From assembly GCA_013152275.1 (NCBI GenBank), contig JAADGS010000073.1:62001-84779 (forward strand): a stretch of DNA of 22,779 bases, in the 5' to 3' direction. Origin of the DNA: Actinomycetota bacterium (GTDB lineage Bacteria; Actinomycetota; Acidimicrobiia; Spongiisociales; UBA4744). The first letter of the stretch is position 1; each line of letters starts with the position of its first letter. Shown piece after piece: positions 12,265-22,779 of the stretch. The position numbers and the translations under genes are program-made. Under the pieces are notes generated by a model, which did no database searches, was not told where the DNA came from, and saw nothing but the letters and a program-made list of their open reading frames with translations.

Positions 12265-13458
12265 ATGCGGTTGCGAGCACTGCCGGCGTTGGTGGCGATC
12301 ATCGCTGCCGCGTGTACGCCGACCCAAGTCACCACGACCGCGACTTCGTCTCTTCTCCCGCCGCCGACCACGACAACGACCACGGCGCCCACCTTCCTGA
12401 CCGGTGTGGGAGTCGGCGATGACACGGTTCGTCTTGCCGCCTTCTTGCCGTTGAGCGGTTCTCTTGCCGGAATCGGGGAGTCGATCCTCGAAGGGCACCG
12501 GGCGTATTGGCGGTATGTGAACGACGACCTGGGCGGTGTCGCCGGACGATTCATCGTCACGCTCGATGAGGTCGACACCGCGTACGACCCGGTGTCCGCC
12601 GTCAGCGAACTCGCGGCACGTGAAGACTCGATCCTTGGGATTTCCGCCATGCTCGGCAGTCCGATCACGCGGGCGCTCTTGGACGCGGACTCGACCATGC
12701 CGATCATGGTCGGATCGCAGGCGGTCTTGTGGGCGAAGCACCACAATGCGATGTACGACCTGGCGGTGCCCACGTATCGGGATCAGGTCTCTGTCCTCTG
12801 GGATCTTGCGGTCGACGCTGCCGGTGACCCGTCCGACGTGGGGTTCGTTGCACCAGTCGATCTCTATGGCGACGACTGCCTCGCAGGCGTGGGCACGCAG
12901 CCGCAGATCATGTCTCGTTACGCCCCCGGTACGACCGACTTCGAGGGTGTCATCAAAGACCTCGACGGCGCGAAGGCGCTTGTGGCGTGTGTTACGAGCG
13001 CCGACCTCGTGCGCATCATCGCGACCGGCAATCTGCTCGGGAGCACACCGGCGATCTACGCGACGGGCCTGTCGTATGACCCGACGGTCCTCGATGCGCT
13101 CGGGAAGGTTCCGGAGGATCTCTGGATCGCAGGCGCACCACCCGCCTACGAAGCTGACGTTCCCGGGATGAAGCTGTTCCGCACGGTGACCGGCGAGATC
13201 GAGGACGTGAATGCCTGGACGTTCTTCGGGTACACGCAGGCCGCGACGTTCCACGTGTTGCTCGAACAGGCCGTCGACGACGGCACATTGACCAGGTCGG
13301 GTGTGCTGGCGGCCCGGGGCCGCGTTGGCGATGTCGACTTTGGGTACGGGTGGGGGCCGGCCGGCTTCGACAGCGGCGGGATCGTTCCGAAGGTGCCTGT
13401 CACGGTATCGGTTCCCGGCCCCGATGCGATCTTTGGCCTTCGTTCTCTCGACCGGTAG
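12265..13458 (+). CDS. Second ABC substrate-binding lipoprotein (LivK-like fold)
   Basis: GGAGG at 12251-12255. Lipobox (…IIAAA-C), Thr/Pro linker, LPLSG.LA, YVN…GGVAGR, DTAYDP, YGDD. Confidence 0.8.
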   Translation: MRLRALPALVAIIAAACTPTQVTTTATSSLLPPPTTTTTTAPTFLTGVGVGDDTVRLAAFLPLSGSLAGIGESILEGHRAYWRYVNDDLGGVAGRFIVTLDEVDTAYDPVSAVSELAAREDSILGISAMLGSPITRALLDADSTMPIMVGSQAVLWAKHHNAMYDLAVPTYRDQVSVLWDLAVDAAGDPSDVGFVAPVDLYGDDCLAGVGTQPQIMSRYAPGTTDFEGVIKDLDGAKALVACVTSADLVRIIATGNLLGSTPAIYATGLSYDPTVLDALGKVPEDLWIAGAPPAYEADVPGMKLFRTVTGEIEDVNAWTFFGYTQAATFHVLLEQAVDDGTLTRSGVLAARGRVGDVDFGYGWGPAGFDSGGIVPKVPVTVSVPGPDAIFGLRSLDR

Positions 13459-13529
13459 ATCAGGACGTTCTTCTATCCGGTCCTCCGGCTTCGGCTCCAG
13501 TTCTCGCAGGCTTTTGCCGATAGGTCGAT

Positions 13530-14054
13530 ATGCAGGCTGTCATCCTCGCTTTGGTACTGGCGTTGGCAACGCCCAGCTTCAGCCCTGCGATCACCGAGGT
13601 GCCCGCGAGAGCTCGCGTCGATGCCGTGACTCAGCAACTCGGGATCGTTACCGGACGTCTCGAGATTCCGGCGATCGACCTCGACGAGGTGATCCGAGAC
13701 GGTGTCGATCTGTCGGTCATCGATCGCGGTGTGGCCCACTGGTCGGGGACCGCGGATCCTGGCGGCGCCGGCAACATGGTGCTTGCCGGCCATCGAACGA
13801 TTCACTCGGCGCCGTTCCTCGATCTGGACAAGCTCGAGCCCGGAGATGAGATCTACGTCACGGGGATCGGAGGGCGCATCGCCACCTACCGGGTCGTCGA
13901 GACGCTGATCGTCACGCCTGCGGACATGTGGATCGTCGACCCGACCGACACGCCGATGCTCACGATATTCGCCTGCCATCCCAAACGGTCTGCTCGTCAA
14001 CGTATCGTCGTACGAGCCGAACTGGTCGATACGCCGGTCGTGCAGTTTCCCTGA
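13530..14054 (+). CDS. Sortase (class D/E-like)
   Basis: LEIPAID, GVAHW.GT..PG..GN.VLAGHRT (His), LTIFACHP (Cys), RIVVRAEL (Arg). N-terminal hydrophobic segment. Confidence 0.88.
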   Translation: MQAVILALVLALATPSFSPAITEVPARARVDAVTQQLGIVTGRLEIPAIDLDEVIRDGVDLSVIDRGVAHWSGTADPGGAGNMVLAGHRTIHSAPFLDLDKLEPGDEIYVTGIGGRIATYRVVETLIVTPADMWIVDPTDTPMLTIFACHPKRSARQRIVVRAELVDTPVVQFP

Positions 14055-14164
14055 GACGGTGCTGCGTACTTCGTAGTTTGTGTTTCGCAGTCGAGACGGT
14101 GTCGTTCTGCCGAGAGCGCTTCAACGGCTGCTGATCTGCCGGCCGGCAGTACTATTCGCCTCCC

Positions 14165-15196
14165 ATGATCGACTACCCGCAACAGAGAGCGCCGCGGTGG
14201 CCGTACGTTGCCGTCGGTGTACTGACAGGTTTGCTCATGCTGGCGGTGGTCGCCTGGAGCGTGACGTTGCCCTATGTCGCATGGTCGCCGGGACCGGTGC
14301 CCGAGGTCGTCAGCCTCATCACGGTCGAAGGCGCCCCGACCTATCCGGTGCGAGGCAACCTGTACATGCTCACGGTATCCCAGCAGGATATCAACGCATA
14401 TGAGCTGCTCGCCGCGTGGGCGGATCCGACGGTCGATGTGCTCGACCGTGACGTGGTTCGCCCGGTCGGCCAGTCACCGGAGGAGTACCAGCGGGTCGCG
14501 CAGCATGACATGCTCGAGTCCAAGAACACGGCAATCCTCGTGGCACTCGACCGTCTCGGCTACGACGTCACCTACAAGGGGGATGGTGTCGAGGTGGCGA
14601 CGATCCTGAAGGGGACTCCTGCCGACGGCGCCCTCGAAATCGGTGATGTGATCACGGCGATCAACGGCAAACCGGTCGAGCTCGCCAGAGACGCCGTGGC
14701 GCTGATCACTTCATACGCGATCGGCGACACGATCACGCTCACCGTCGAACGCGGCGGCCAGACGATCGATGTGCCGATCACGCTGGTGGAGCACACGCAG
14801 GAGAAAGGCCGGCCGATGGTCGGGTTCGGGGCCGTCACCCACAACCTGACGTACGACTTCCCGATCGAGGTCGATATCGATTCGACCAACATCGGTGGGC
14901 CTTCTGCGGGCATGATGTACACGCTGGCGGTCTTGGACGTGCTGACCCCCGACGACATCACGAAAGGGCACAGGATCGCCGGAACAGGGACCATCGCGTC
15001 AGACGGGACCGTCGGACCGATCGGCGGGATCCGTCAGAAAGTCGAGGGTGCAGAGGCTGCCGGGGCAGAGTACATCCTCGTTCCGAAGGCCAACTATGAA
15101 GAGGCGCTGACTGCACCTGTGAAGGGCGTGAAAATCGTCCCGGTGCAGAACATCGACGATGCGCTTGCGTTCTTGTCGGGCCTCCCGAACGCCTAA
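14165..15196 (+). CDS. Membrane-anchored PDZ-domain Lon-like (S16) protease, YlbL/Rv3194c-like
   Basis: N-terminal TM helix, PG motif, PDZ segment (TPADGALEIGDVITAING), catalytic Ser GGPSAG, IAGTGTI, Lys in IGGIRQK. Confidence 0.9.
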   Translation: MIDYPQQRAPRWPYVAVGVLTGLLMLAVVAWSVTLPYVAWSPGPVPEVVSLITVEGAPTYPVRGNLYMLTVSQQDINAYELLAAWADPTVDVLDRDVVRPVGQSPEEYQRVAQHDMLESKNTAILVALDRLGYDVTYKGDGVEVATILKGTPADGALEIGDVITAINGKPVELARDAVALITSYAIGDTITLTVERGGQTIDVPITLVEHTQEKGRPMVGFGAVTHNLTYDFPIEVDIDSTNIGGPSAGMMYTLAVLDVLTPDDITKGHRIAGTGTIASDGTVGPIGGIRQKVEGAEAAGAEYILVPKANYEEALTAPVKGVKIVPVQNIDDALAFLSGLPNA

Positions 15197-15222
15197 AGCT
15201 CAGATCCGGAGATCGGGCACGG

Positions 15223-15228
15223 TATCGT
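15223..15228 (+). promoter_or_regulatory. Candidate -10 box of a leaderless transcript for the DivIVA gene
   Basis: TATCGT ends 7 nt before ATG 15236; no SD sequence. Confidence 0.5.
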
Positions 15229-15235
15229 TGGCATC

Positions 15236-17206
15236 ATGGCTGGCTCGCTACGCCCGGAAGACGTCACCGCCAAGTCGTTCAAGTCCGGATGGCGGGGCTA
15301 CGAAACGGGTGCCGTCGATGCGTTCCTCCGTGAGGTCTTCGCAACGCTGACCGCTCTGCAGAGTGAGAACGAGCAGTTCCGTGACCGGCTTCGCAGACTT
15401 GGCGACCGTGACCTTCATGCGGAGTTCGATCAGGTGTCCGCCGAGGTTGGCGAGCTACTCCAGAGTGCAAGGGAAACCGCCGAAGGGATGCGATTCAGAG
15501 CCTCGGTCGACGCGGAGCAGATCGTTGGTGAGGCCCGCGACGACGCGGTGAAGGTTCGCCAGGACGCGTGGAACGAAGGTTCGGCGCTGCTCGAAGCATG
15601 CCAGGAGGAGGCCGACGCGCTCGTAGAAAGGGCCAAACGCGACTCCCTGGCGATCATCAGCGATGCAGAGCGTGACGCTCACCGAATTGCCGTCAAGGCG
15701 CGCAAGGACTCCGAAGAGACGATCCGAGGAGCCAAGGTGCAGGCCGATCAGCTCGTCGTCGACGCCCGTTTGCACCGTGACGAGCTGATCCGTGAAGGCG
15801 AAGCCGAGAGAGCAGCGGCCCAGGAGAGGGTTGCGGTCCTCATGCAGCGTCGAACTGAGCTGCTCGCAGAGATCGAATCGCTGCAGTCCAAGATCAATGA
15901 ACTCCGTGCCGAGCTCGAGGAACGGCGTGCCGAGATCGGAAAAGCTCGAGCAGCAGATATCTCCAGTGTGAAGGTGCTGCCCGGCCCTGTTGGCAGGGGA
16001 GATGCAGAGACGTCACGGACGTCCGAGGCTCGGCACGGCGACGGAGAGACATCACAGACCGGCGAAGGCTGGCACGAAGGTGAGGATACGGTTCGCATCG
16101 TTCGACCACCGAGACGTTTGAAAACGCCGACCGGAGAAATCGATGCGGAGGCGATGGCCGCGGAGGTGCGAAAGCTTCGCCAACCGCCCGAACCGAAGCA
16201 ACCGGAACCGATCGTAGAGACTGCCGAGATCGTAGAGACCGTCGAGACCGTCGAGACCGTAGAGACTGCCGGGACCGTCGAGATCGTAGAGACTGCCGGG
16301 ACCGTCGAGACCGTAGAGACCGTCGAGACTGCCGGGACCGTCGAGACCGCACCAACTTCCGAAGTGCCGGTACCACCAGAGGCGTCCGAGGTCACGCCGG
16401 TCGGTGAGGAAACCACGGGCGTGTCGGCCGGGATCGACGAGTTGTTCGCCAGGCTTCGCTCGGAGTCGGAGACCGCACCCCAGGTCGACCAGGCGGCGAA
16501 GGAGATTCCTGCCCGTCCGAAGCCGGCGGAGCCTTCCATACAGCTCGAGCAGGAGGCACGCTCGGTGCCCACGATCGATCCGTTCGAGTTGCGGGACCGT
16601 CTCCTCTTGCCCATCACCAACAAGACCCTTCGGACGTTGAAGCGGAGCCTCACCGAAGCGCAGAACATTGCTCTCGATGAGCTGCGGGTTCAAGAGGCCG
16701 CGTGGAAGCCGGACCTCGACAGGCTCGAGGTGGCGATCACCGGTGACCTCGAGGAACTGCTGCGCCGTGCCGTGTCGGCGGGGTGGGCCGGCGCCGGGCG
16801 GCTCCTCGAGAGCGAGATCGAAGAGGCCGACGTGCACATCGAGAGTTCCGCAGGGCACGACTTTGCGGCAGCGATCACCGACGGTGTGCGCAGCGCCCTC
16901 GACGGTGCCGGCGAGGGACCGCGCCGACGCGCCGCCGCGATCTCCAGGGTCTACCGGGCGTGGCGGGTCGATGAGGCCGAACGACAGGTACGTTTGCTGG
17001 CCATCGGCGCCTATCACGACGGGCTGATCGGAGCGCTCGAGCAGGCCGGAGTGCAGCAGGTGCGGTGGGTGTTGACCGGCCGGGGATGTGTGACGTGCAG
17101 GGCACTTGCCGAGGCCGGTCCGGTCGAGCCGGGAGCAGCGTTCGCATCGGGCCCGAAACGGCCACCGGCGCACGAGTCGTGCGAGTGCACCCTTCTGCCC
17201 GTGTGA
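15236..17206 (+). CDS. DivIVA-domain coiled-coil protein with C-terminal MuF/gp7-like Cys/His domain
   Basis: N-terminus LRPEDVTAKSFKSGWRGYETGAVDAFL is the DivIVA motif. About 200 aa of A/E/R coiled coil, then an acidic Pro/Thr linker. C-terminus RW…CVTC…F.SG…PPAHESCECTLLPV. Confidence 0.85.
   Translation: MAGSLRPEDVTAKSFKSGWRGYETGAVDAFLREVFATLTALQSENEQFRDRLRRLGDRDLHAEFDQVSAEVGELLQSARETAEGMRFRASVDAEQIVGEARDDAVKVRQDAWNEGSALLEACQEEADALVERAKRDSLAIISDAERDAHRIAVKARKDSEETIRGAKVQADQLVVDARLHRDELIREGEAERAAAQERVAVLMQRRTELLAEIESLQSKINELRAELEERRAEIGKARAADISSVKVLPGPVGRGDAETSRTSEARHGDGETSQTGEGWHEGEDTVRIVRPPRRLKTPTGEIDAEAMAAEVRKLRQPPEPKQPEPIVETAEIVETVETVETVETAGTVEIVETAGTVETVETVETAGTVETAPTSEVPVPPEASEVTPVGEETTGVSAGIDELFARLRSESETAPQVDQAAKEIPARPKPAEPSIQLEQEARSVPTIDPFELRDRLLLPITNKTLRTLKRSLTEAQNIALDELRVQEAAWKPDLDRLEVAITGDLEELLRRAVSAGWAGAGRLLESEIEEADVHIESSAGHDFAAAITDGVRSALDGAGEGPRRRAAAISRVYRAWRVDEAERQVRLLAIGAYHDGLIGALEQAGVQQVRWVLTGRGCVTCRALAEAGPVEPGAAFASGPKRPPAHESCECTLLPV
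16217..16351 (+). repeat. Fifteen 9-bp tandem units encoding ETV/ETA/EIV/GTV
   Basis: Units GAGACCGTC, GAGACCGTA, GAGACTGCC, GGGACCGTC, GAGATCGTA and a terminal GAGACCGCA, all in frame. Confidence 0.92.
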
Positions 17207-17234
17207 TCTAATCCGCCGTTAGAGTGGAGGACAC

Positions 17235-20048
17235 ATGATTCAACGAAACCCCACCCCGCGCCGGAGTCGGCGAGGGCTTACCTTTTTCATCTTCGTCGGG
17301 TTCGTCTTACTCCTGGCATTACGAGGCTTGGCCACGTTCTGGACCGATCTGTTGTGGTTCCGATCTGTAAACCTCGCTTCGGTGTGGGAGACGCTCATTC
17401 TCTTCAAGGTGATTCCCGCCGCCATCGGATCGGTGATTGCGTTCCTGATGCTCTGGACGAACGTGCTCATCGCCGACCGCCTCTCACCCCGGTTCCGGCT
17501 TTTCGACATGGCTCCCGAAGAGGAGTTCGTCGAGCGCATGCAGGAGTGGATCGAACCTCGGATTCGCAAGGTACGGTTGGGGGCATCGGCAGTGTTCGGC
17601 GTGCTTGTCGGTGTGAGCGCCGCCGGCTGGTGGGACAACATACTGCGCTATCTCAACCGCAGCTCATTCGGGCTGGCGGACCCGATTCTCGGCAAGGACG
17701 TTTCGTTCTACGTCTTCAAGCTGCCGCTGTACCGGGACCTGTTCGGTTGGGCGTTCCAGCTGATGCTTCTCACGACGCTGCTCGTTGGGGCAATGCACTA
17801 CCTCAACGGTGGTATCCGGCTGCTCCCCGGCAGGGCGCCGCGAGTATCCGCCGGCGTTCGGGCGCATCTGTCGGTGCTGCTGGCCGTGATCGCGATCCTC
17901 AAGGCGGTCGGCTACCGGCTCGATGCATATCAGCTGTTGTACTCGCCCCGGGGGATTGTGTATGGGGCCAGTTTTACCGACGTCAAGGCACAACTGCCCG
18001 CCTTGACGCTGCTCTCACTCATTTCCCTGTTTGCCGCCGGTCTTTTGCTGTGGAACATTCACAGTCGCGGCTGGACCCTGCCTGCCGTCGCAGTTGGAGG
18101 CTGGCTGGTGATGTCGATCATCGTCGGAGGAATCATTCCGGCTGCGGTGCAGCGGTTCCGGGTGGAACCCGCCGAGCAGATACTCGAGAAGCCGTACATC
18201 GAGAACGGCATCACCTTCACACGCCAGGCCTACGGCCTCAATAACGTTGAGGTGCGTCAGTTCGCCGCGTCGCCGAATCTGACACTCGACGATATCGAGA
18301 ACAACCGGCCGACGGTCGACAACATCAAGTTGTGGGACGCGGCGGTGCTCACCGACACGTACACCCAGCTGCAGGAGATCAGGACCTATTACGGACTCAA
18401 CGATGTCGATGTCGATCGGTACATGATCAACGGTGCGCTCACGCAGACGATGATCGCCGGGCGCGAACTCGACGAGGCCGCCGATGTCATCTCCGGATGG
18501 GTGAACGAACATCTCGTCTACACCCACGGATTCGGTGCGGTCCTGAGTCCCGCCAACGCGGTTGACGAGCAAGGCCAGCCGGTGTTCCTCGTCCAGGACG
18601 TTCCCCCTGTGGCGAGCGACCCGAGTCTCAATATCACCCAGCCGCGGATCTACTTCGGAGACACCTACTCGGATCGGTTCCTCATCGTCGGGACCAAGCA
18701 GAAGGAAGTCGACTTTCCGCTGACCCAGGAAGGTGAGTCGGTCGCTCGTAACACGTATGGCGGGTCCGGTGGTGTACCGATCGGCAGCATGTTCAACCGC
18801 GCTGCGTTCGCGCTGCGCTACTCGGATCTGAACACGGTGATCTCGAATCAGCTCACCACAGACTCGAAGACGCTGATGATTCGCAACGTCTCCGCTCGTC
18901 TGCGCACCGCCGCACCGTTCCTGCGGGTGGACTCGGACCCGTACCTGGTCGATGTCGGCGGACGGCTCATCTGGGTCGTCGACATGTACACGGTGTCGGA
19001 TGCGTACCCGTACGCGGAGCCGGCGTCGATCAACCGACTCGGTATCGGCGCGGGGACGTTGCCGAACAAGTTCAACTACGTGCGCAATACGGTGAAGGCG
19101 ACCGTCGATGCGTATGACGGCACGATGCGGTTCTACGTCGTCGACGACAGTGACCCGATCATCCGCGCCTATCGGGCTGCGTTCCCGGATTTGTTCTCCG
19201 ACGGGTCCACGATGCCGGAGGATCTCGTGGCGCATCTGCGCTATCCGGAGGATCTGTTCCGTGTACAGAGTGACATGTACCTGCGGTTCCACATGACCGA
19301 ACCCGACGTGTTCTACAACAGTGAGGACGAGTGGGAAGAACCGCTCGACCCGTCCAACGCAGGAAACCAGGACAAGCTTCGTGGCGAGTACCTCGATCCG
19401 ACGTGGGCCAGGCCGATGCTGCCGTACTACCTGCTGATGCGTCTTCCCGAAGAACAGCGGCTCTCCTACCTCATCCTGCAACCGTTCCTGCCGGTCGAGC
19501 GTCCGAACATGGCCTCGTTCCTCATCGCGAAGTCGGGTCCTGAGGACTACGGCAAACTGATCGACTATCGCCTGCCCCGCACCGGGTTCGTCGACGGGCC
19601 CAACCAGGTCGACGCACGTATCGATCAGAACCCGCAGGTGTCCCAGCAGATCACGCTGTGGAACCAGCAGGGATCGAAGGTGATTCGGGGCGATCTGCTC
19701 GTGGTGCCGATCGAATCGTCACTCCTGTACATTCAGCCGGTCTATCTGCAGGCTGCAAAGGTGCCCCTGCCGCAATTCAAGCGGGTCGTTGCGGTGTTCA
19801 ACGAAGAAGTTGTGATGCGTAAGACCCTGGCCGAGGCGCTCCAAGACCTGTTTGCGGGCGGGGAGACGTCTGCTACTTCCACTGAACCGGTTGGCGACCA
19901 GACGGCACCCGATCTGCTCGACCAGGCCGCCGAGGCGTTCTCTCAGGCGGAGACCGCGCTGCGGGCGGGGGATCTGGGGACCTATCAGGCCAAGATCGAA
20001 GAGGCCAGGGGGCTCATCGAGCAGGCGAGGAAGCTGCTCGGCGGCTGA
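17235..20048 (+). CDS. UPF0182 family integral membrane protein
   Basis: WTDLLWF, DP..GKDVSFYVFKLP, GASFTDV.AQLP, EKPYI..I.FTR.AYGL, QLQEIR.YY, DVDRY, HLVYTHGFG, QPRIYFG, NYVRNTVKATVDAYDG, HLRYPEDLF, G.LLVVPI..SLLYIQPVY. Confidence 0.95.
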   Translation: MIQRNPTPRRSRRGLTFFIFVGFVLLLALRGLATFWTDLLWFRSVNLASVWETLILFKVIPAAIGSVIAFLMLWTNVLIADRLSPRFRLFDMAPEEEFVERMQEWIEPRIRKVRLGASAVFGVLVGVSAAGWWDNILRYLNRSSFGLADPILGKDVSFYVFKLPLYRDLFGWAFQLMLLTTLLVGAMHYLNGGIRLLPGRAPRVSAGVRAHLSVLLAVIAILKAVGYRLDAYQLLYSPRGIVYGASFTDVKAQLPALTLLSLISLFAAGLLLWNIHSRGWTLPAVAVGGWLVMSIIVGGIIPAAVQRFRVEPAEQILEKPYIENGITFTRQAYGLNNVEVRQFAASPNLTLDDIENNRPTVDNIKLWDAAVLTDTYTQLQEIRTYYGLNDVDVDRYMINGALTQTMIAGRELDEAADVISGWVNEHLVYTHGFGAVLSPANAVDEQGQPVFLVQDVPPVASDPSLNITQPRIYFGDTYSDRFLIVGTKQKEVDFPLTQEGESVARNTYGGSGGVPIGSMFNRAAFALRYSDLNTVISNQLTTDSKTLMIRNVSARLRTAAPFLRVDSDPYLVDVGGRLIWVVDMYTVSDAYPYAEPASINRLGIGAGTLPNKFNYVRNTVKATVDAYDGTMRFYVVDDSDPIIRAYRAAFPDLFSDGSTMPEDLVAHLRYPEDLFRVQSDMYLRFHMTEPDVFYNSEDEWEEPLDPSNAGNQDKLRGEYLDPTWARPMLPYYLLMRLPEEQRLSYLILQPFLPVERPNMASFLIAKSGPEDYGKLIDYRLPRTGFVDGPNQVDARIDQNPQVSQQITLWNQQGSKVIRGDLLVVPIESSLLYIQPVYLQAAKVPLPQFKRVVAVFNEEVVMRKTLAEALQDLFAGGETSATSTEPVGDQTAPDLLDQAAEAFSQAETALRAGDLGTYQAKIEEARGLIEQARKLLGG

Positions 20049-20057
20049 CCCCAAACC

Positions 20058-20106
20058 GTTCTCGTGACGGTTGGGCCGGATTAACCGCACGAGGCGTCAC
20101 GAGAAC
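20058..20106. repeat. 49-bp palindromic element / bidirectional terminator candidate between convergent genes
   Basis: Perfect 12-bp IR GTTCTCGTGACG … CGTCACGAGAAC with a 25-nt spacer. Confidence 0.7.
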
Positions 20107-20116
20107 AGGTGGATGC

Positions 20117-20671
20117 TCACTCTTGCGCCATCAGGACGGCGTGCGCTGCCAGCTCGGCAAGCTCGAGCCGGTCGAACGCCTCATCGAGATCCGACCCGAC
20201 GGCGACCACACCATGCCCGTACAGCAGCACGATGACCGCCCCGTCGGCAACGGCTGCACCGACGGCTCGACCGAGCTCTTCACTGCCGCTGGGAGCAAAG
20301 TCGACGGTGGCGAAGAGGCCGACCGCTTCGGCGAGTTCAGGGAGCCGTGCAGTGAGGTCGAGTTCGCGCAGGCCTGCAGCGATGAGCGCCGGTGCGTGGG
20401 CGTGAAGAACCGCCCCGACGTCGGGATTCGCAAGGTATGCGGCGCGATGAAGCGGGAGTTCGGTGCTGGCCCGAGTCGACGTCTCGTCCGAGTCGAGCCG
20501 AACGGCGACGAGGTCGGTCGGGCGGAGGGTGTCCTTGCGGGTGCCGCGAGGGGTGATGAGGATCGTGTCGGCGATCCGCGCCGACAGGTTGCCGGCGCGT
20601 CCGGCGATCAGACCGGCACCGTGCATGCTCTTGCCGATACGGCAGATCCCGGAGCGGATGTCGTACCTCAT
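20117..20671 (-). CDS. Class II aldolase/adducin family protein (FucA/Ald2-like)
   Basis: GNLSAR, ITPRG, STELPLH..AY, AVLHAH, LL.GHGV (metal-binding His residues). ATGA overlap with the mtnA stop. Confidence 0.88.
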   Translation of the reverse strand: MRYDIRSGICRIGKSMHGAGLIAGRAGNLSARIADTILITPRGTRKDTLRPTDLVAVRLDSDETSTRASTELPLHRAAYLANPDVGAVLHAHAPALIAAGLRELDLTARLPELAEAVGLFATVDFAPSGSEELGRAVGAAVADGAVIVLLYGHGVVAVGSDLDEAFDRLELAELAAHAVLMAQE

Positions 20672-21699
20672 GGGAGGGTCTGCTCGAACGGTGGCGTGGC
20701 GATGCCCATCTCGGTGACGATCCCGGTGATCAGTGCGGCAGGAGTGACGTCGAATGCCGGATTCCAGACGTCGGCGGTCTCCGGGGCGGTGAGCGTCCCG
20801 AACCCACGGCGGACTTCGTCGGCGGAGCGCTGCTCGATGGGGATGTCCTCGCCGGTCGGTGTGGCGTGATCGATCGTGGAGGTGGGGGCGAACGAGTAGA
20901 AGGGAATGCCGTGGTGGCGGGCGAGGACGGCGAGCGGGTAGGTGCCGATCTTGTTGGCGACGTCACCATTTGCGGCGATCCGGTCGGCGCCGACGAAGAC
21001 GACATCGGGCGGTTGGCGGCTGAACAGGGCACCGGCCATCGAGTCGGTGATGACGGTGACGTCGATGCCCGCCTGGTCGAGTTCCCATGCGGTGAGACGG
21101 CTGCCTTGGAGGAGCGGACGGGTCTCGTCGGCGTAGACGTGAATGGCCCAGCCACGTTCATGGGCGAGATAGATGGGGGCGAGGGCCGTGCCGATACCGC
21201 CGGTGGCGAGTGCCCCGGTGTTGCAGTGCGTGTGCACGGTGGCACCGTCGCGCAGGAGCGTGAGGCCGTGCTCGCCGATGCGCCGGCACATGGAGCGGTC
21301 TTCGTCGTGGATGGCGGCGGCCTCGTCGGTGAGAGCTTGGGCGAGGTCGTCGGGCCGGTGGGAGACGACGGATCGCATACGGTCGATCGCCCAGGTGAGG
21401 TTGACGGCGGTGGGGCGGGTGACGGCGAGGCGGTCCGCCCACCGGTCGACGGCGCCGGCGAGAGCGGCCTGATCGAGGCGGCCGGCGGCCTGGTTGGCCA
21501 GCGCGGCGATGCCCATGGCGGCGGTGATGCCGATCAGCGGTGCGCCCCGCACACGAAGCGAGACGATCGCTTCTGCGATCTCCTCGACGGTTTCGAGTTG
21601 CTGCTCTTGTCGCCGTTGAGGCAGCAGGGTCTGATCGAGGATGATCAGGGCCGTGCGGCCGTCGGCCCAGCGAATGGTTGTGATGGGTTCGTGCGTCAC
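20668..21699 (-). CDS. mtnA: S-methyl-5-thioribose-1-phosphate isomerase
   Basis: ILDQTLLP, VRGAPLIG, TRPTAVNL, THCNTGALAT.GIGTA, DETRPLLQGSRLTAWEL, VGADRIAANGD.ANKIGTY, NPAFDVTP. GTG 21699 preferred over 21759, which overlaps the tRNA promoter. Confidence 0.95.
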   Translation of the reverse strand: MTHEPITTIRWADGRTALIILDQTLLPQRRQEQQLETVEEIAEAIVSLRVRGAPLIGITAAMGIAALANQAAGRLDQAALAGAVDRWADRLAVTRPTAVNLTWAIDRMRSVVSHRPDDLAQALTDEAAAIHDEDRSMCRRIGEHGLTLLRDGATVHTHCNTGALATGGIGTALAPIYLAHERGWAIHVYADETRPLLQGSRLTAWELDQAGIDVTVITDSMAGALFSRQPPDVVFVGADRIAANGDVANKIGTYPLAVLARHHGIPFYSFAPTSTIDHATPTGEDIPIEQRSADEVRRGFGTLTAPETADVWNPAFDVTPAALITGIVTEMGIATPPFEQTLP

Positions 21700-21706
21700 G
21701 GTTGCG

Positions 21707-21712
21707 ACCCTA
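21707..21712 (-). promoter_or_regulatory. Candidate -10 box (TAGGGT) for a leaderless mtnA transcript
   Basis: TAGGGT on the minus strand, 7 nt before GTG 21699; no SD sequence. Confidence 0.55.
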
Positions 21713-21731
21713 GTAGCTGCCTGGTGCGCCT

Positions 21732-21760
21732 TTGCGGTTGCCCCGGCGGGCGCGTACACT
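21732..21760 (+). promoter_or_regulatory. Housekeeping-sigma promoter of tRNA-fMet
   Basis: TTGCGG (21732-21737), 17-bp spacer, TACACT (21755-21760). Confidence 0.65.
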
Positions 21761-21771
21761 CACCGCTGCGA

Positions 21772-21845
<74 letters not shown>

Positions 21846-21855
21846 CGAACGAAAT

Positions 21856-21883
21856 CCCCGGTCAGACGTGTGCCTGGCCGGGG
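21856..21883 (+). terminator. Stem-loop downstream of the tRNA
   Basis: CCCCGGTCAG … CTGGCCGGGG, a 10-bp stem with one G-U pair. Confidence 0.65.
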
Positions 21884-21958
21884 CTTCTACCGTCTCGCGG
21901 CGGTCTTCTACCGTGGCTTCTACCGTTTGGCGGTGCTCTTCTACCGTCGCTTCTACCG
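21884..21958. repeat. Five exact CTTCTACCG direct repeats, candidate integrase arm-type sites
   Basis: Copies start at 21884, 21905, 21917, 21938 and 21950 (spacing 21/12/21/12). Confidence 0.85.
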
Positions 21959-22779
21959 GCCGTTGGCGATCAGCCTCTCGAAGACGCGTGCCGCTTGGGC
22001 TTGCGTGCCAAGCAGGACGTGTTGGTAGGTGTCGATGGTGAACGCCGGGTTGTTTGACGGGGACGCCTTCTTTGATCAGCAGGGTGCCGTGGGTGTGGCG
22101 GAGGTCATGGAGTCGGATCTTGGGGGCGCCGGCCTGAGCGACGATCCGTTCGAAGGCCTGGGAGATCGAGTGGGGTGGATCGGGTTGCCCTCGACGTCGG
22201 CGAACACCCATCGGGTTGGTTCGATCCCCGCGGCGTTCCGTTCGGCTTGCTGCCACGCCTTGAGGGCGGAGAGGACCTTGACGGTGGTCGCGTCGAGGTC
22301 GACCGCGCGCCGCGAGTTGCTGGTCTTGCCTCGTGAGCCATAGAGATCGTAACCGACGGACACGAGGCCCCGGTTGACCGAGAGGGTGGCGGCGTCGAGG
22401 TCGACATCCGTCCATTGCAGGCCGAGGAGTTCGCTGCGGCGCAGCCCGGTGGTGGCGAGAAGCCACAGGGCGGGAAACAGCCGGTGGCCGGCGGCTTGGC
22501 GCAGAAACGCCTGGAGTTCGGGGGCTGTCCAGGCCTGCTGTTCCACCTTGGGGATCGACCGCATCTTGGGGGCGTGAGCAACGAGCGCCACGTCTCAAGA
22601 CACAATGCCGCGGCGTACGGCGTCGTTGAGGGCACCCCGGATGATCAGATGCAGCTCCAGCACCGTCTTGGGGGCCGACGGCCGGGTGTCGTCGGTGGGA
22701 TGCAGCTTGGAGTCATACAGCGCCTCGAGGTGATCGGGTCGGAGTCGACGGATCGGGACCCTGCCGAGGGTGGGGAGGA
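21953..22779 (-). pseudogene. Tyrosine recombinase/phage-type integrase, inactivated; 5' end outside window
   Basis: Motifs TGLRRSELLGLQW, KT..SRR, HDLRHTHGT and T.DTYQH are spread over different frames. In-frame TGA at 22595-22597, 1-nt frameshift near 22172, and the LGH segment is missing near 22052. Confidence 0.9.

Follow-up and report, generated by a model that had tools for sequence, protein, structure and literature searches.

A single uninterrupted frame of 656 codons in the stretch of DNA analysed here (the window: 22,779 nucleotides (nt) of contig JAADGS010000073.1, assembly GCA_013152275.1, from an actinobacterium of the class Acidimicrobiia) encodes a protein that we call DivIVA-MuF. 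It starts with a DivIVA domain, continues through a helical region and a long linker, and ends in a domain of about 210 amino acids (aa) that resembles the MuF/SPP1 gp7 head proteins of phages. We hold both this domain anatomy and the homology to MuF with high confidence. In Acidimicrobiia, DivIVA-MuF is passed on vertically as a housekeeping gene, and it occurs also in a few other classes of Actinomycetota. The strongest clue to its function is its invariable adjacency to a gene for a UPF0182 membrane protein, which the first-pass annotation of the window had not mentioned. Our best explanation overall, with a probability of about 0.5, is that the protein is a membrane-anchored cytoplasmic adaptor working with UPF0182.

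Relationship of the C-terminal domain to phage head proteins

The first-pass annotation had read a MuF/gp7-like C-terminus from the letters alone, a reading that both the predicted fold and the sequence profiles of relatives bear out. The C-terminal sequence it quoted is present, with the CxxC and HxxCxC motifs exactly where it had put them, while its domain start near nt 16740 (aa ~502) lies too far downstream. The conserved block opens at the DPFELRDRLLLP motif, and the domain starts at about aa 447 (nt ~16574).

An alignment of the domain from 77 loci plus the copy in the window, together 78 species, was used for structure prediction with AlphaFold2 (AF2). The resulting model has a predicted local distance difference test (pLDDT) value of 96.0 and a predicted template modelling (pTM) score of 0.91, and the high-confidence fold spans all 210 residues: four long helices, followed by a small strand-helix-strand element that holds the Cys/His motif. 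A Foldseek search of BFVD with the domain returned 68 matches at E ≤ 1e-3 (best 1.3e-6, template modelling (TM) score by query up to 0.71). Among the 50 matches listed, 31 were named, and 26 of these carried the names minor capsid, head morphogenesis, MuF-like, capsid maturation protease or minor structural protein; the other named matches in this list comprised two portal-named, two toxin-named and one uncharacterised protein. The portal- and toxin-named matches fit the same picture, since portal-MuF and MuF-toxin fusions are architectures already described in PMC5512222 and PMC5576092. With a model of its own for residues 447–656, the ESM Atlas gave TM scores by query of 0.78–0.89 to viral Phage_Mu_F clusters, in which Phage_Mu_F stands alone or together with Phage_portal or Ntox50. 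All structures matched in BFVD and the ESM Atlas are themselves predicted, and by these predicted structures the domain has the MuF-superfamily fold over its whole length.

Sequence profiles of the orthologues point the same way. The PHROG family phrog_2662 was matched by 38 of the 78 orthologous domains (best E 8e-11), phrog_4728 ('head morphogenesis') by 35 (best 4.4e-5) and phrog_115 ('minor head protein') by 31 (best 1.9e-7), and a distant homologue, L093, reached E 2e-11 against a PHROG head family. The phrog_2662 matches fall at profile positions ~431–712 of 717, where a 'portal protein' family has its C-terminal extension, and the alignment covers up to residues 23–213 of a 216-aa domain. 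With Pfam, VG15 was found in 14 of the 78 orthologues and Phage_Mu_F in 11, the next family appearing in just four; the best E-values were 0.0022 for VG15 (profile positions 5–189 of 212) and 0.0069 for Phage_Mu_F, all below the curated thresholds. Two distant fused homologues, L093 and L097, match Phage_Mu_F over profile positions 3–112 (E ~1e-3, 20 bits). In the reverse direction, a profile built from the domain alignment finds a VG15-family protein at E 1.6e-9. Gp15 of Mycobacterium phage L5, whose gene lies directly 3' of the portal gene, is a member of VG15 (E 2.3e-23).

Several results weigh against this relationship. The window protein itself has no match to Phage_Mu_F (PF04233; gathering cut-off 29.6 bits) at E ≤ 10, and a search of the whole genome for this family gave none at E ≤ 1. 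The window domain reaches only 11.1 bits against VG15 (PF25310; E 0.44, cut-off 26), and the matches of the protein to PHROG are weak (E 0.012 and 0.074). Among experimental structures in the PDB, nothing was found by Foldseek with the domain model at E ≤ 0.001, a sequence-profile search gave E ≥ 0.2 at best, and a VIA structure search returned only generic helical bundles (Z ≤ 8.3). Finally, hhalign of the domain alignment against 34 proteins of the SPP1 gp7 family was not significant (probability 1.1%, E 0.048, 17 columns covering the CxC motif only). We read this last result, negative as it is, as a sign of subfamily distance, because the gp7 subfamily appears to carry D..TR..H where the window family has CxxC.

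We place the domain in the MuF/VG15 head-protein superfamily, as a divergent cellular branch outside the families defined in Pfam. The alternative, a zinc-knuckle helical bundle of separate origin that has come to resemble MuF by convergence, appears very improbable to us. The Pfam thresholds left unreached by the window domain and the comparison with gp7 are what this alternative would predict, and helical models do tend to gather middling structural matches; yet convergence would not readily give orthologues that match PHROG head families along most of their length at E-values of 8e-11 (2e-11 for the distant homologue), matched families that are almost exclusively head-morphogenesis ones, or two independent models and structure searches that agree. 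The order W...GR.C..C ... H..C.C, weak evidence when taken alone, is also that of the VG15 member L5 gp15.

The Cys and His residues that the first-pass annotation had singled out are conserved across the orthologues. C618, C621 and C649 are invariant in all 78 species, as are H594, W576, R577 and D579, while H646 is retained in 72 and C651 in 73; P643-P644 is invariant in the domain alignment. The CxxC sits at the start of a helix (173–180 of the modelled domain), and the resulting Cys-Cys...(His)-Cys-Cys knuckle probably binds a metal ion. In the first helix R453, R455, N462, K469, Q476, N477 and R484 are invariant.

The DivIVA end, the linker and the integrity of the fusion

The N-terminal DivIVA domain announced by the first-pass annotation was found well above the Pfam cut-off (Table 1), and the NCBIfam DivIVA domain TIGR03544 scored 33.8 bits against a cut-off of 22. 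The Wag31 equivalog NF050102 reached only 60.5 bits against a cut-off of 260. The separate canonical divIVA that the annotation had suggested looking for exists: it is a second DivIVA gene (102.5 bits) at C71:128664, after ftsZ (126225) and sepF (128097) on the same contig. DivIVA-MuF is a paralogue of this canonical divIVA and not the orthologue of the dcw cluster. R20 and G21, in a loop reading W-R-G-Y, are almost invariant in the full-length alignment. In the structure of B. subtilis DivIVA (Oliva et al., 2010) this loop reportedly holds the membrane-binding residues.

Behind the DivIVA domain, aa ~119–240 align across homologues without gaps and would form a coiled coil, and Pfam and NCBIfam scans of aa 140–245 gave weak matches only, to coiled-coil families. 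The linker that follows varies in length and composition and keeps short motifs across 25 full-length homologues. These motifs (W.EG.E.VRIV.PP, VDA.AMAAEV..LR and IDDLFA.LR), which occur in distant homologues too, look like docking motifs for partners. No hydrophobic membrane segment was seen in the hydropathy profile of the protein, which is therefore taken to be cytoplasmic.

The combination of DivIVA and MuF-like domains is real and conserved. A database search with aa 449–656 retrieved 32 full-length proteins of 536–757 aa, all with DivIVA; they are labelled only 'DivIVA domain-containing protein' or hypothetical and come mostly from metagenome-assembled genomes (MAGs) of Acidimicrobiia. 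In contigs sampled at one genome per species, relatives are encoded by 210 stretches, from which 80 loci, again nearly all from Acidimicrobiia MAGs, were kept. A profile of the domain matched 1445 cluster representatives at E ≤ 1e-3 (779 at E ≤ 1e-10), and in all 150 matches listed the domain stands at or near the C-terminal end; most of these proteins have 500–870 aa and the rest are shorter, some of the shorter cluster representatives probably being fragments. Two stand-alone short forms were found (234 and 272 aa), at least one of which is a broken frame in a MAG (L008). Split frames or, in L019 and L041, an altered C-terminus were seen in five MAG loci (L008, L019, L041, L049 and L063) and may reflect assembly frameshifts or genuine decay. 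The closest homologue, P0002 (83% identity over the domain), is labelled at source 'Gammaproteobacteria bacterium'; its MAG is probably mis-binned or mislabelled, as all other named relatives are Actinomycetota/Acidimicrobiia. As the first-pass annotation had supposed, a full-text literature search turned up no paper on a protein with this architecture.

The linker of the window protein contains an (ETV)n run encoded by a tandem repeat (Table 1), and assembly across it deserves attention. Logan contigs of this organism from three runs all break inside the repeat, which is tiled there by pieces of 38–53 nt, so no single contig spans it. A 9-nt deletion at 16253 in run X2 is a copy-number variant of the repeat. 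If a faulty assembly at the repeat had brought the MuF part and divIVA together, or if the gene were a prophage remnant, this break would be expected, as might the tRNA-Met gene and integrase-like open reading frame (ORF) that lie 4.6 kilobases (kb) downstream of the gene. Both variants seem extremely improbable to us. Homologues that lack the repeat, such as P0002 (81% identity), still have a single frame, so the repeat is not a mis-join; the same single frame recurs in relatives from 210 species genomes; and read depth is equal on the two sides of the repeat (36.2 and 37.4 in run X1). In addition, the window holds no other phage gene, and the tRNA and integrase-like ORF are separated from DivIVA-MuF by UPF0182 and two more ORFs. 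The possibility of an assembly chimera, which the first-pass annotation had named as one that would undo its reading, can thus be set aside.

Table 1. Positions of DivIVA-MuF, its parts and its neighbouring genes in the window.
Feature	Position	Strand	Basis or remark
Whole gene, DivIVA-linker-MuF-like	15236..17206	+	656 aa plus stop; ORF list and translation
DivIVA domain, aa 7–118	15254..15589	+	Pfam PF05103, E 2.8e-17, 63.3 bits (cut-off 28)
Helical, putative coiled-coil continuation, aa ~119–240	15590..15955	+	Gap-free alignment across homologues
Low-complexity Pro/Glu-rich linker, aa ~241–446	15956..16573	+	Alignment of full-length homologues
9-nt tandem repeat, 15.2 copies, encoding the (ETV)n run of the linker	16213..16349	+	Tandem Repeats Finder
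MuF/VG15-like domain, aa 447–656	16574..17203	+	AF2 model, BFVD Foldseek, ESM Atlas, PHROG on orthologues
CxxC motif, C618 and C621	17087..17098	+	Both Cys in 78/78 orthologues
HxxCxC motif, H646/C649/C651	17171..17188	+	Invariant PP 643–644 just before
Upstream neighbour, PDZ and Lon_C protease, putatively membrane-anchored	14165..15196	+	Pfam PDZ_2 and Lon_C; ends 39 nt before the gene
Downstream neighbour, UPF0182 membrane protein	17235..20048	+	Pfam PF03699, E 5.9e-272; starts 28 nt after the gene

Distribution, inheritance and gene neighbourhood

Across an evenly drawn sample of 301 Actinomycetota genomes, the domain was present in the organism's own genome, in 6/6 further genomes of the same order, in 10/15 from the rest of the class and in 9/279 from other classes. 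In five genomes from other orders of the class it is fused to DivIVA and lies directly upstream of UPF0182, and the same arrangement was confirmed in five genomes from other classes (G190, G281, G252, G229 and G123). The distant matches examined did not include G137, whose frame of 91 aa lies at the end of a contig, and a weak match in G096 (L104, E 1.6e-4) was dropped, as it was not recovered by hmmsearch at E ≤ 0.01.

Two further genomes show variant forms. In G003, from another class, two tandem MuF-like frames precede UPF0182 (L096, G003:C4 6059–8744) and no DivIVA was detected there by Pfam; they may have arisen by splitting or duplication of the gene. G025 encodes a stand-alone VG15-family protein of 244 aa (L103, G025:C130 1250–1984; 28.5 bits, cut-off 26), adjoining a HAMP-domain protein and with a sulfotransferase and ThiI farther along. 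No phage genes are in view there, and it is another MuF/VG15-like domain without an evident prophage.

The domain and the membrane part of the neighbouring UPF0182 have diverged in parallel: their pairwise identities correlate with a Pearson coefficient of 0.83 (2211 non-independent pairs, 67 genomes), and the mean pairwise identity is 0.46 for the domain and 0.50 for the UPF0182 membrane part. This fits vertical co-inheritance. The G+C content of the gene is the same as that of its surroundings. Phage_Mu_F prophage genes were seen in only 2/201 sampled Actinomycetota genomes; one of these two matches, L084, served as the seed for the comparison with the gp7 family. A scan of IMG/VR with the domain alignment gave 27 stretches that fit the pattern, none of which was confirmed as a relative. 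In its biological role, then, DivIVA-MuF differs from MuF proper, which belongs to phage or prophage head modules beside portal or terminase genes.

The conserved neighbourhood consists of a PDZ-Lon protease gene on one side and UPF0182 on the other. The PDZ-Lon gene lies upstream on the same strand in 70/72 loci with more than 400 nt of upstream room, and UPF0182 lies downstream on the same strand in all 77 loci with room. From the stop codon to the estimated start of UPF0182 the median distance is 52 nt, and in 62/77 loci it is at most 100 nt. The array PDZ-Lon_C protease, DivIVA-MuF and UPF0182 is probably co-transcribed. A scan for promoters and terminators over 13300–20400 was uninformative (no promoter-like and four terminator-like elements, against 2.9 of the latter expected). 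By hydropathy, the PDZ-Lon protease has an N-terminal hydrophobic segment at aa ~11–35 and UPF0182 has seven hydrophobic segments within aa 15–305, which suggests a single N-terminal anchor for the former and a large extracellular C-terminal part for the latter.

Elsewhere the window holds an AtuA/acyl-CoA dehydrogenase/enoyl-CoA hydratase block, a Liv-type ATP-binding cassette (ABC) transporter with an AMP-binding enzyme, and a sortase. The housekeeping context described in the first-pass annotation is borne out by Pfam on the neighbours, and a Pfam scan of the window found no phage structural genes near DivIVA-MuF. The sortase gene precedes PDZ-Lon in the window (13530–15196) and in closer relatives, for example L002, L004–L009, L012 and L019, and a terminator-like hairpin lies between the two (14061–14077).

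Downstream of UPF0182 the window carries two ORFs of 248 and 314 aa (20123–21810) that had no Pfam or PADLOC match; neither stands beside UPF0182 in the 80 related loci, and the 314-aa one overlaps the tRNA-Met gene, so its true extent is doubtful. The tRNA-Met gene (21772–21846, + strand) is followed directly by the integrase-like ORF (21843–22598, − strand), which scores 25.4 bits for Phage_integrase, slightly below the cut-off of 27.1. The pair may mark the edge of an integrated element that extends past the window. The G+C content climbs to 0.68 across 20–22 kb of the window.

A possible role and relation to known systems

Background on UPF0182 comes from a recent study (bioRxiv 10.1101/2025.11.14.688347), in which the protein correlates phenotypically with ftsH and yccA in three actinobacteria, is proposed to act in membrane-protein quality control and is described as universal in Actinomycetota. 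A polymyxin and macrolide profile is reported there for its knock-down. We propose that DivIVA-MuF would act as a cytoplasmic adaptor of a PDZ-Lon/UPF0182 envelope module, because its gene and those of these two proteins stand in a fixed order and are probably co-transcribed. The DivIVA domain and coiled coil would form oligomers attached to the cytoplasmic side of the membrane, as other DivIVA proteins do, anchoring the protein probably at poles or septa. The long flexible linker would present its conserved short motifs, and the MuF-like end would be the module that binds other proteins, either UPF0182 itself or its partners.

Naming UPF0182 as the functional partner is the more tentative part of this proposal, and we put it at less than even chances. 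Gene order is the basis of the suggested partnership, and some considerations count against it. In the topology suggested by hydropathy, little of UPF0182 faces the cytoplasm, namely ~14 aa at the N-terminus and loops of ~32, 16 and 10 aa. Most sampled Actinomycetota do without the gene, any match being found in 9/279 genomes outside the class, with five confirmed as fused and adjacent. Since the gene is this rare and UPF0182 is universal in the phylum, DivIVA-MuF cannot be an obligatory partner of UPF0182. A complex prediction of the domain with aa 1–330 of UPF0182 scored 0.00 in two runs made without controls and speaks for neither side.

The first-pass annotation had offered two other roles, and the first of these was a metal-binding chromosome tether, in which DivIVA would provide the polar anchor while the MuF-like domain binds DNA in the manner of SPP1 gp7. 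Judging by the title of Stiege et al. 2003, gp7 is said to be a DNA-binding protein that reaches the procapsid through the portal, and several of the invariant residues of the first helix, being Arg, Lys or Asn, would suit such an activity. The domain is acidic, however (26 K+R against 32 D+E; isoelectric point (pI) 5.36, with a median of 5.33 and a range of 4.7–7.9 over the 78 orthologues), which speaks against a general role in tethering DNA or the chromosome. There are no ParAB, SMC or nucleoid genes in the conserved neighbourhood either, and the constant neighbours are envelope proteins. We consider a tether unlikely.

The second was a decoy or sensor against phages, in which the domain would bind portals of incoming or assembling phages, or ejected DNA or proteins, at the pole and block infection or assembly. 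The DivIVA site may matter to some phages: Ko and Hatfull 2018, by its title, reportedly deals with a mycobacteriophage protein that inactivates Wag31/DivIVA and so prevents superinfection. MuF proteins, for their part, bind the portal according to PMC5576092. Nevertheless, neither the gene nor its five neighbours matched PADLOC-DB 2.0.0 at E ≤ 0.01. The gene is present in 6/6 sampled genomes of the same order, and its vertical inheritance in a fixed housekeeping synteny, with divergence at a rate similar to that of UPF0182, is unlike the patchy and fast-moving pattern typical of defence genes. The scarcity of Phage_Mu_F prophage genes in the sampled Actinomycetota also speaks against such a role, which we regard as quite improbable.

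An extended form of the adaptor proposal brings in the origin of the domain. In it, an early actinobacterium would have captured a portal-binding MuF/VG15 head protein and fused it to DivIVA, the direction of transfer being from phage to cell; the product would now be a curvature-targeted cytoplasmic adaptor of a UPF0182/PDZ-Lon (FtsH-linked) quality-control machine and would dock on an oligomeric complex through its old ring-binding surface. We consider this scenario possible, if on the unlikely side.

Among the known systems close to DivIVA-MuF are the phage MuF/SPP1 gp7 proteins (PF04233; the 'MuF superfamily' of Jamet et al., 2017, PMC5576092), with which it shares a predicted fold across the whole ~210-aa domain, the C-terminal signature W...(C/D)..(C/H) followed by C.C, and the habit of serving as a fusion partner for other modules. 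Unlike those proteins, it is vertically inherited, belongs to neither phage nor prophage and has no portal or terminase neighbour. Its MuF-like domain stands C-terminally behind a cytoskeletal domain, whereas MuF usually lies N-terminal to fused effectors, has CxxC in the place of the D..TR..H of the gp7 subfamily and falls below the Pfam cut-off. VG15 (PF25310), the family of L5 gp15 with its annotation 'capsid maturation protease', is matched by more of the 78 orthologues than any other Pfam family and shares the motifs 'TGR..C..C' and 'H..C.C...PV', but the gap between the two halves of the motif is ~60 residues, against ~25 in the window domain, and the context of the latter is cellular. 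With DivIVA/Wag31 the protein has in common the N-terminal DivIVA domain followed by a long helical region; it is two to three times longer and adds the linker and the MuF-like domain.

In relation to the UPF0182 module (MSMEG1959 with FtsH/YccA), DivIVA-MuF always lies directly upstream of the UPF0182 orthologue and usually downstream of PDZ-Lon_C. Passages of the UPF0182 study (bioRxiv 10.1101/2025.11.14.688347) name no DivIVA or MuF partner, and its model organisms belong to groups that appear to have no copy of the gene, judging from zero matches in large families here. The precomputed family PF28068.1 is present on 23 of the 32 homologues, so part of the protein may already be a catalogued family. 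Both domains are known. What is new, as far as we have checked, is that they are fused, that a MuF-like domain is inherited by cells and that it is linked to UPF0182.

MuF domains are described in passages of PMC5576092 and PMC5512222 solely as virion-associated parts of phages and prophages, with their molecular function unknown. Here a MuF-like domain is conserved to a degree similar to that seen in a core membrane protein, which offers a test of what the MuF fold binds in a capsid-free system. It also offers a route to partners of UPF0182, an enigmatic membrane protein of Actinobacteria that was recently tied to FtsH, and opens the question of how the poorly studied Acidimicrobiia use a second DivIVA paralogue. 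The gene illustrates neatly how a structural domain of phages can be put to use in the biology of the host cell. Should the extended scenario of an adaptor derived from a phage head protein be true, it would give the MuF domain its first cellular function and UPF0182 its first physical partner.

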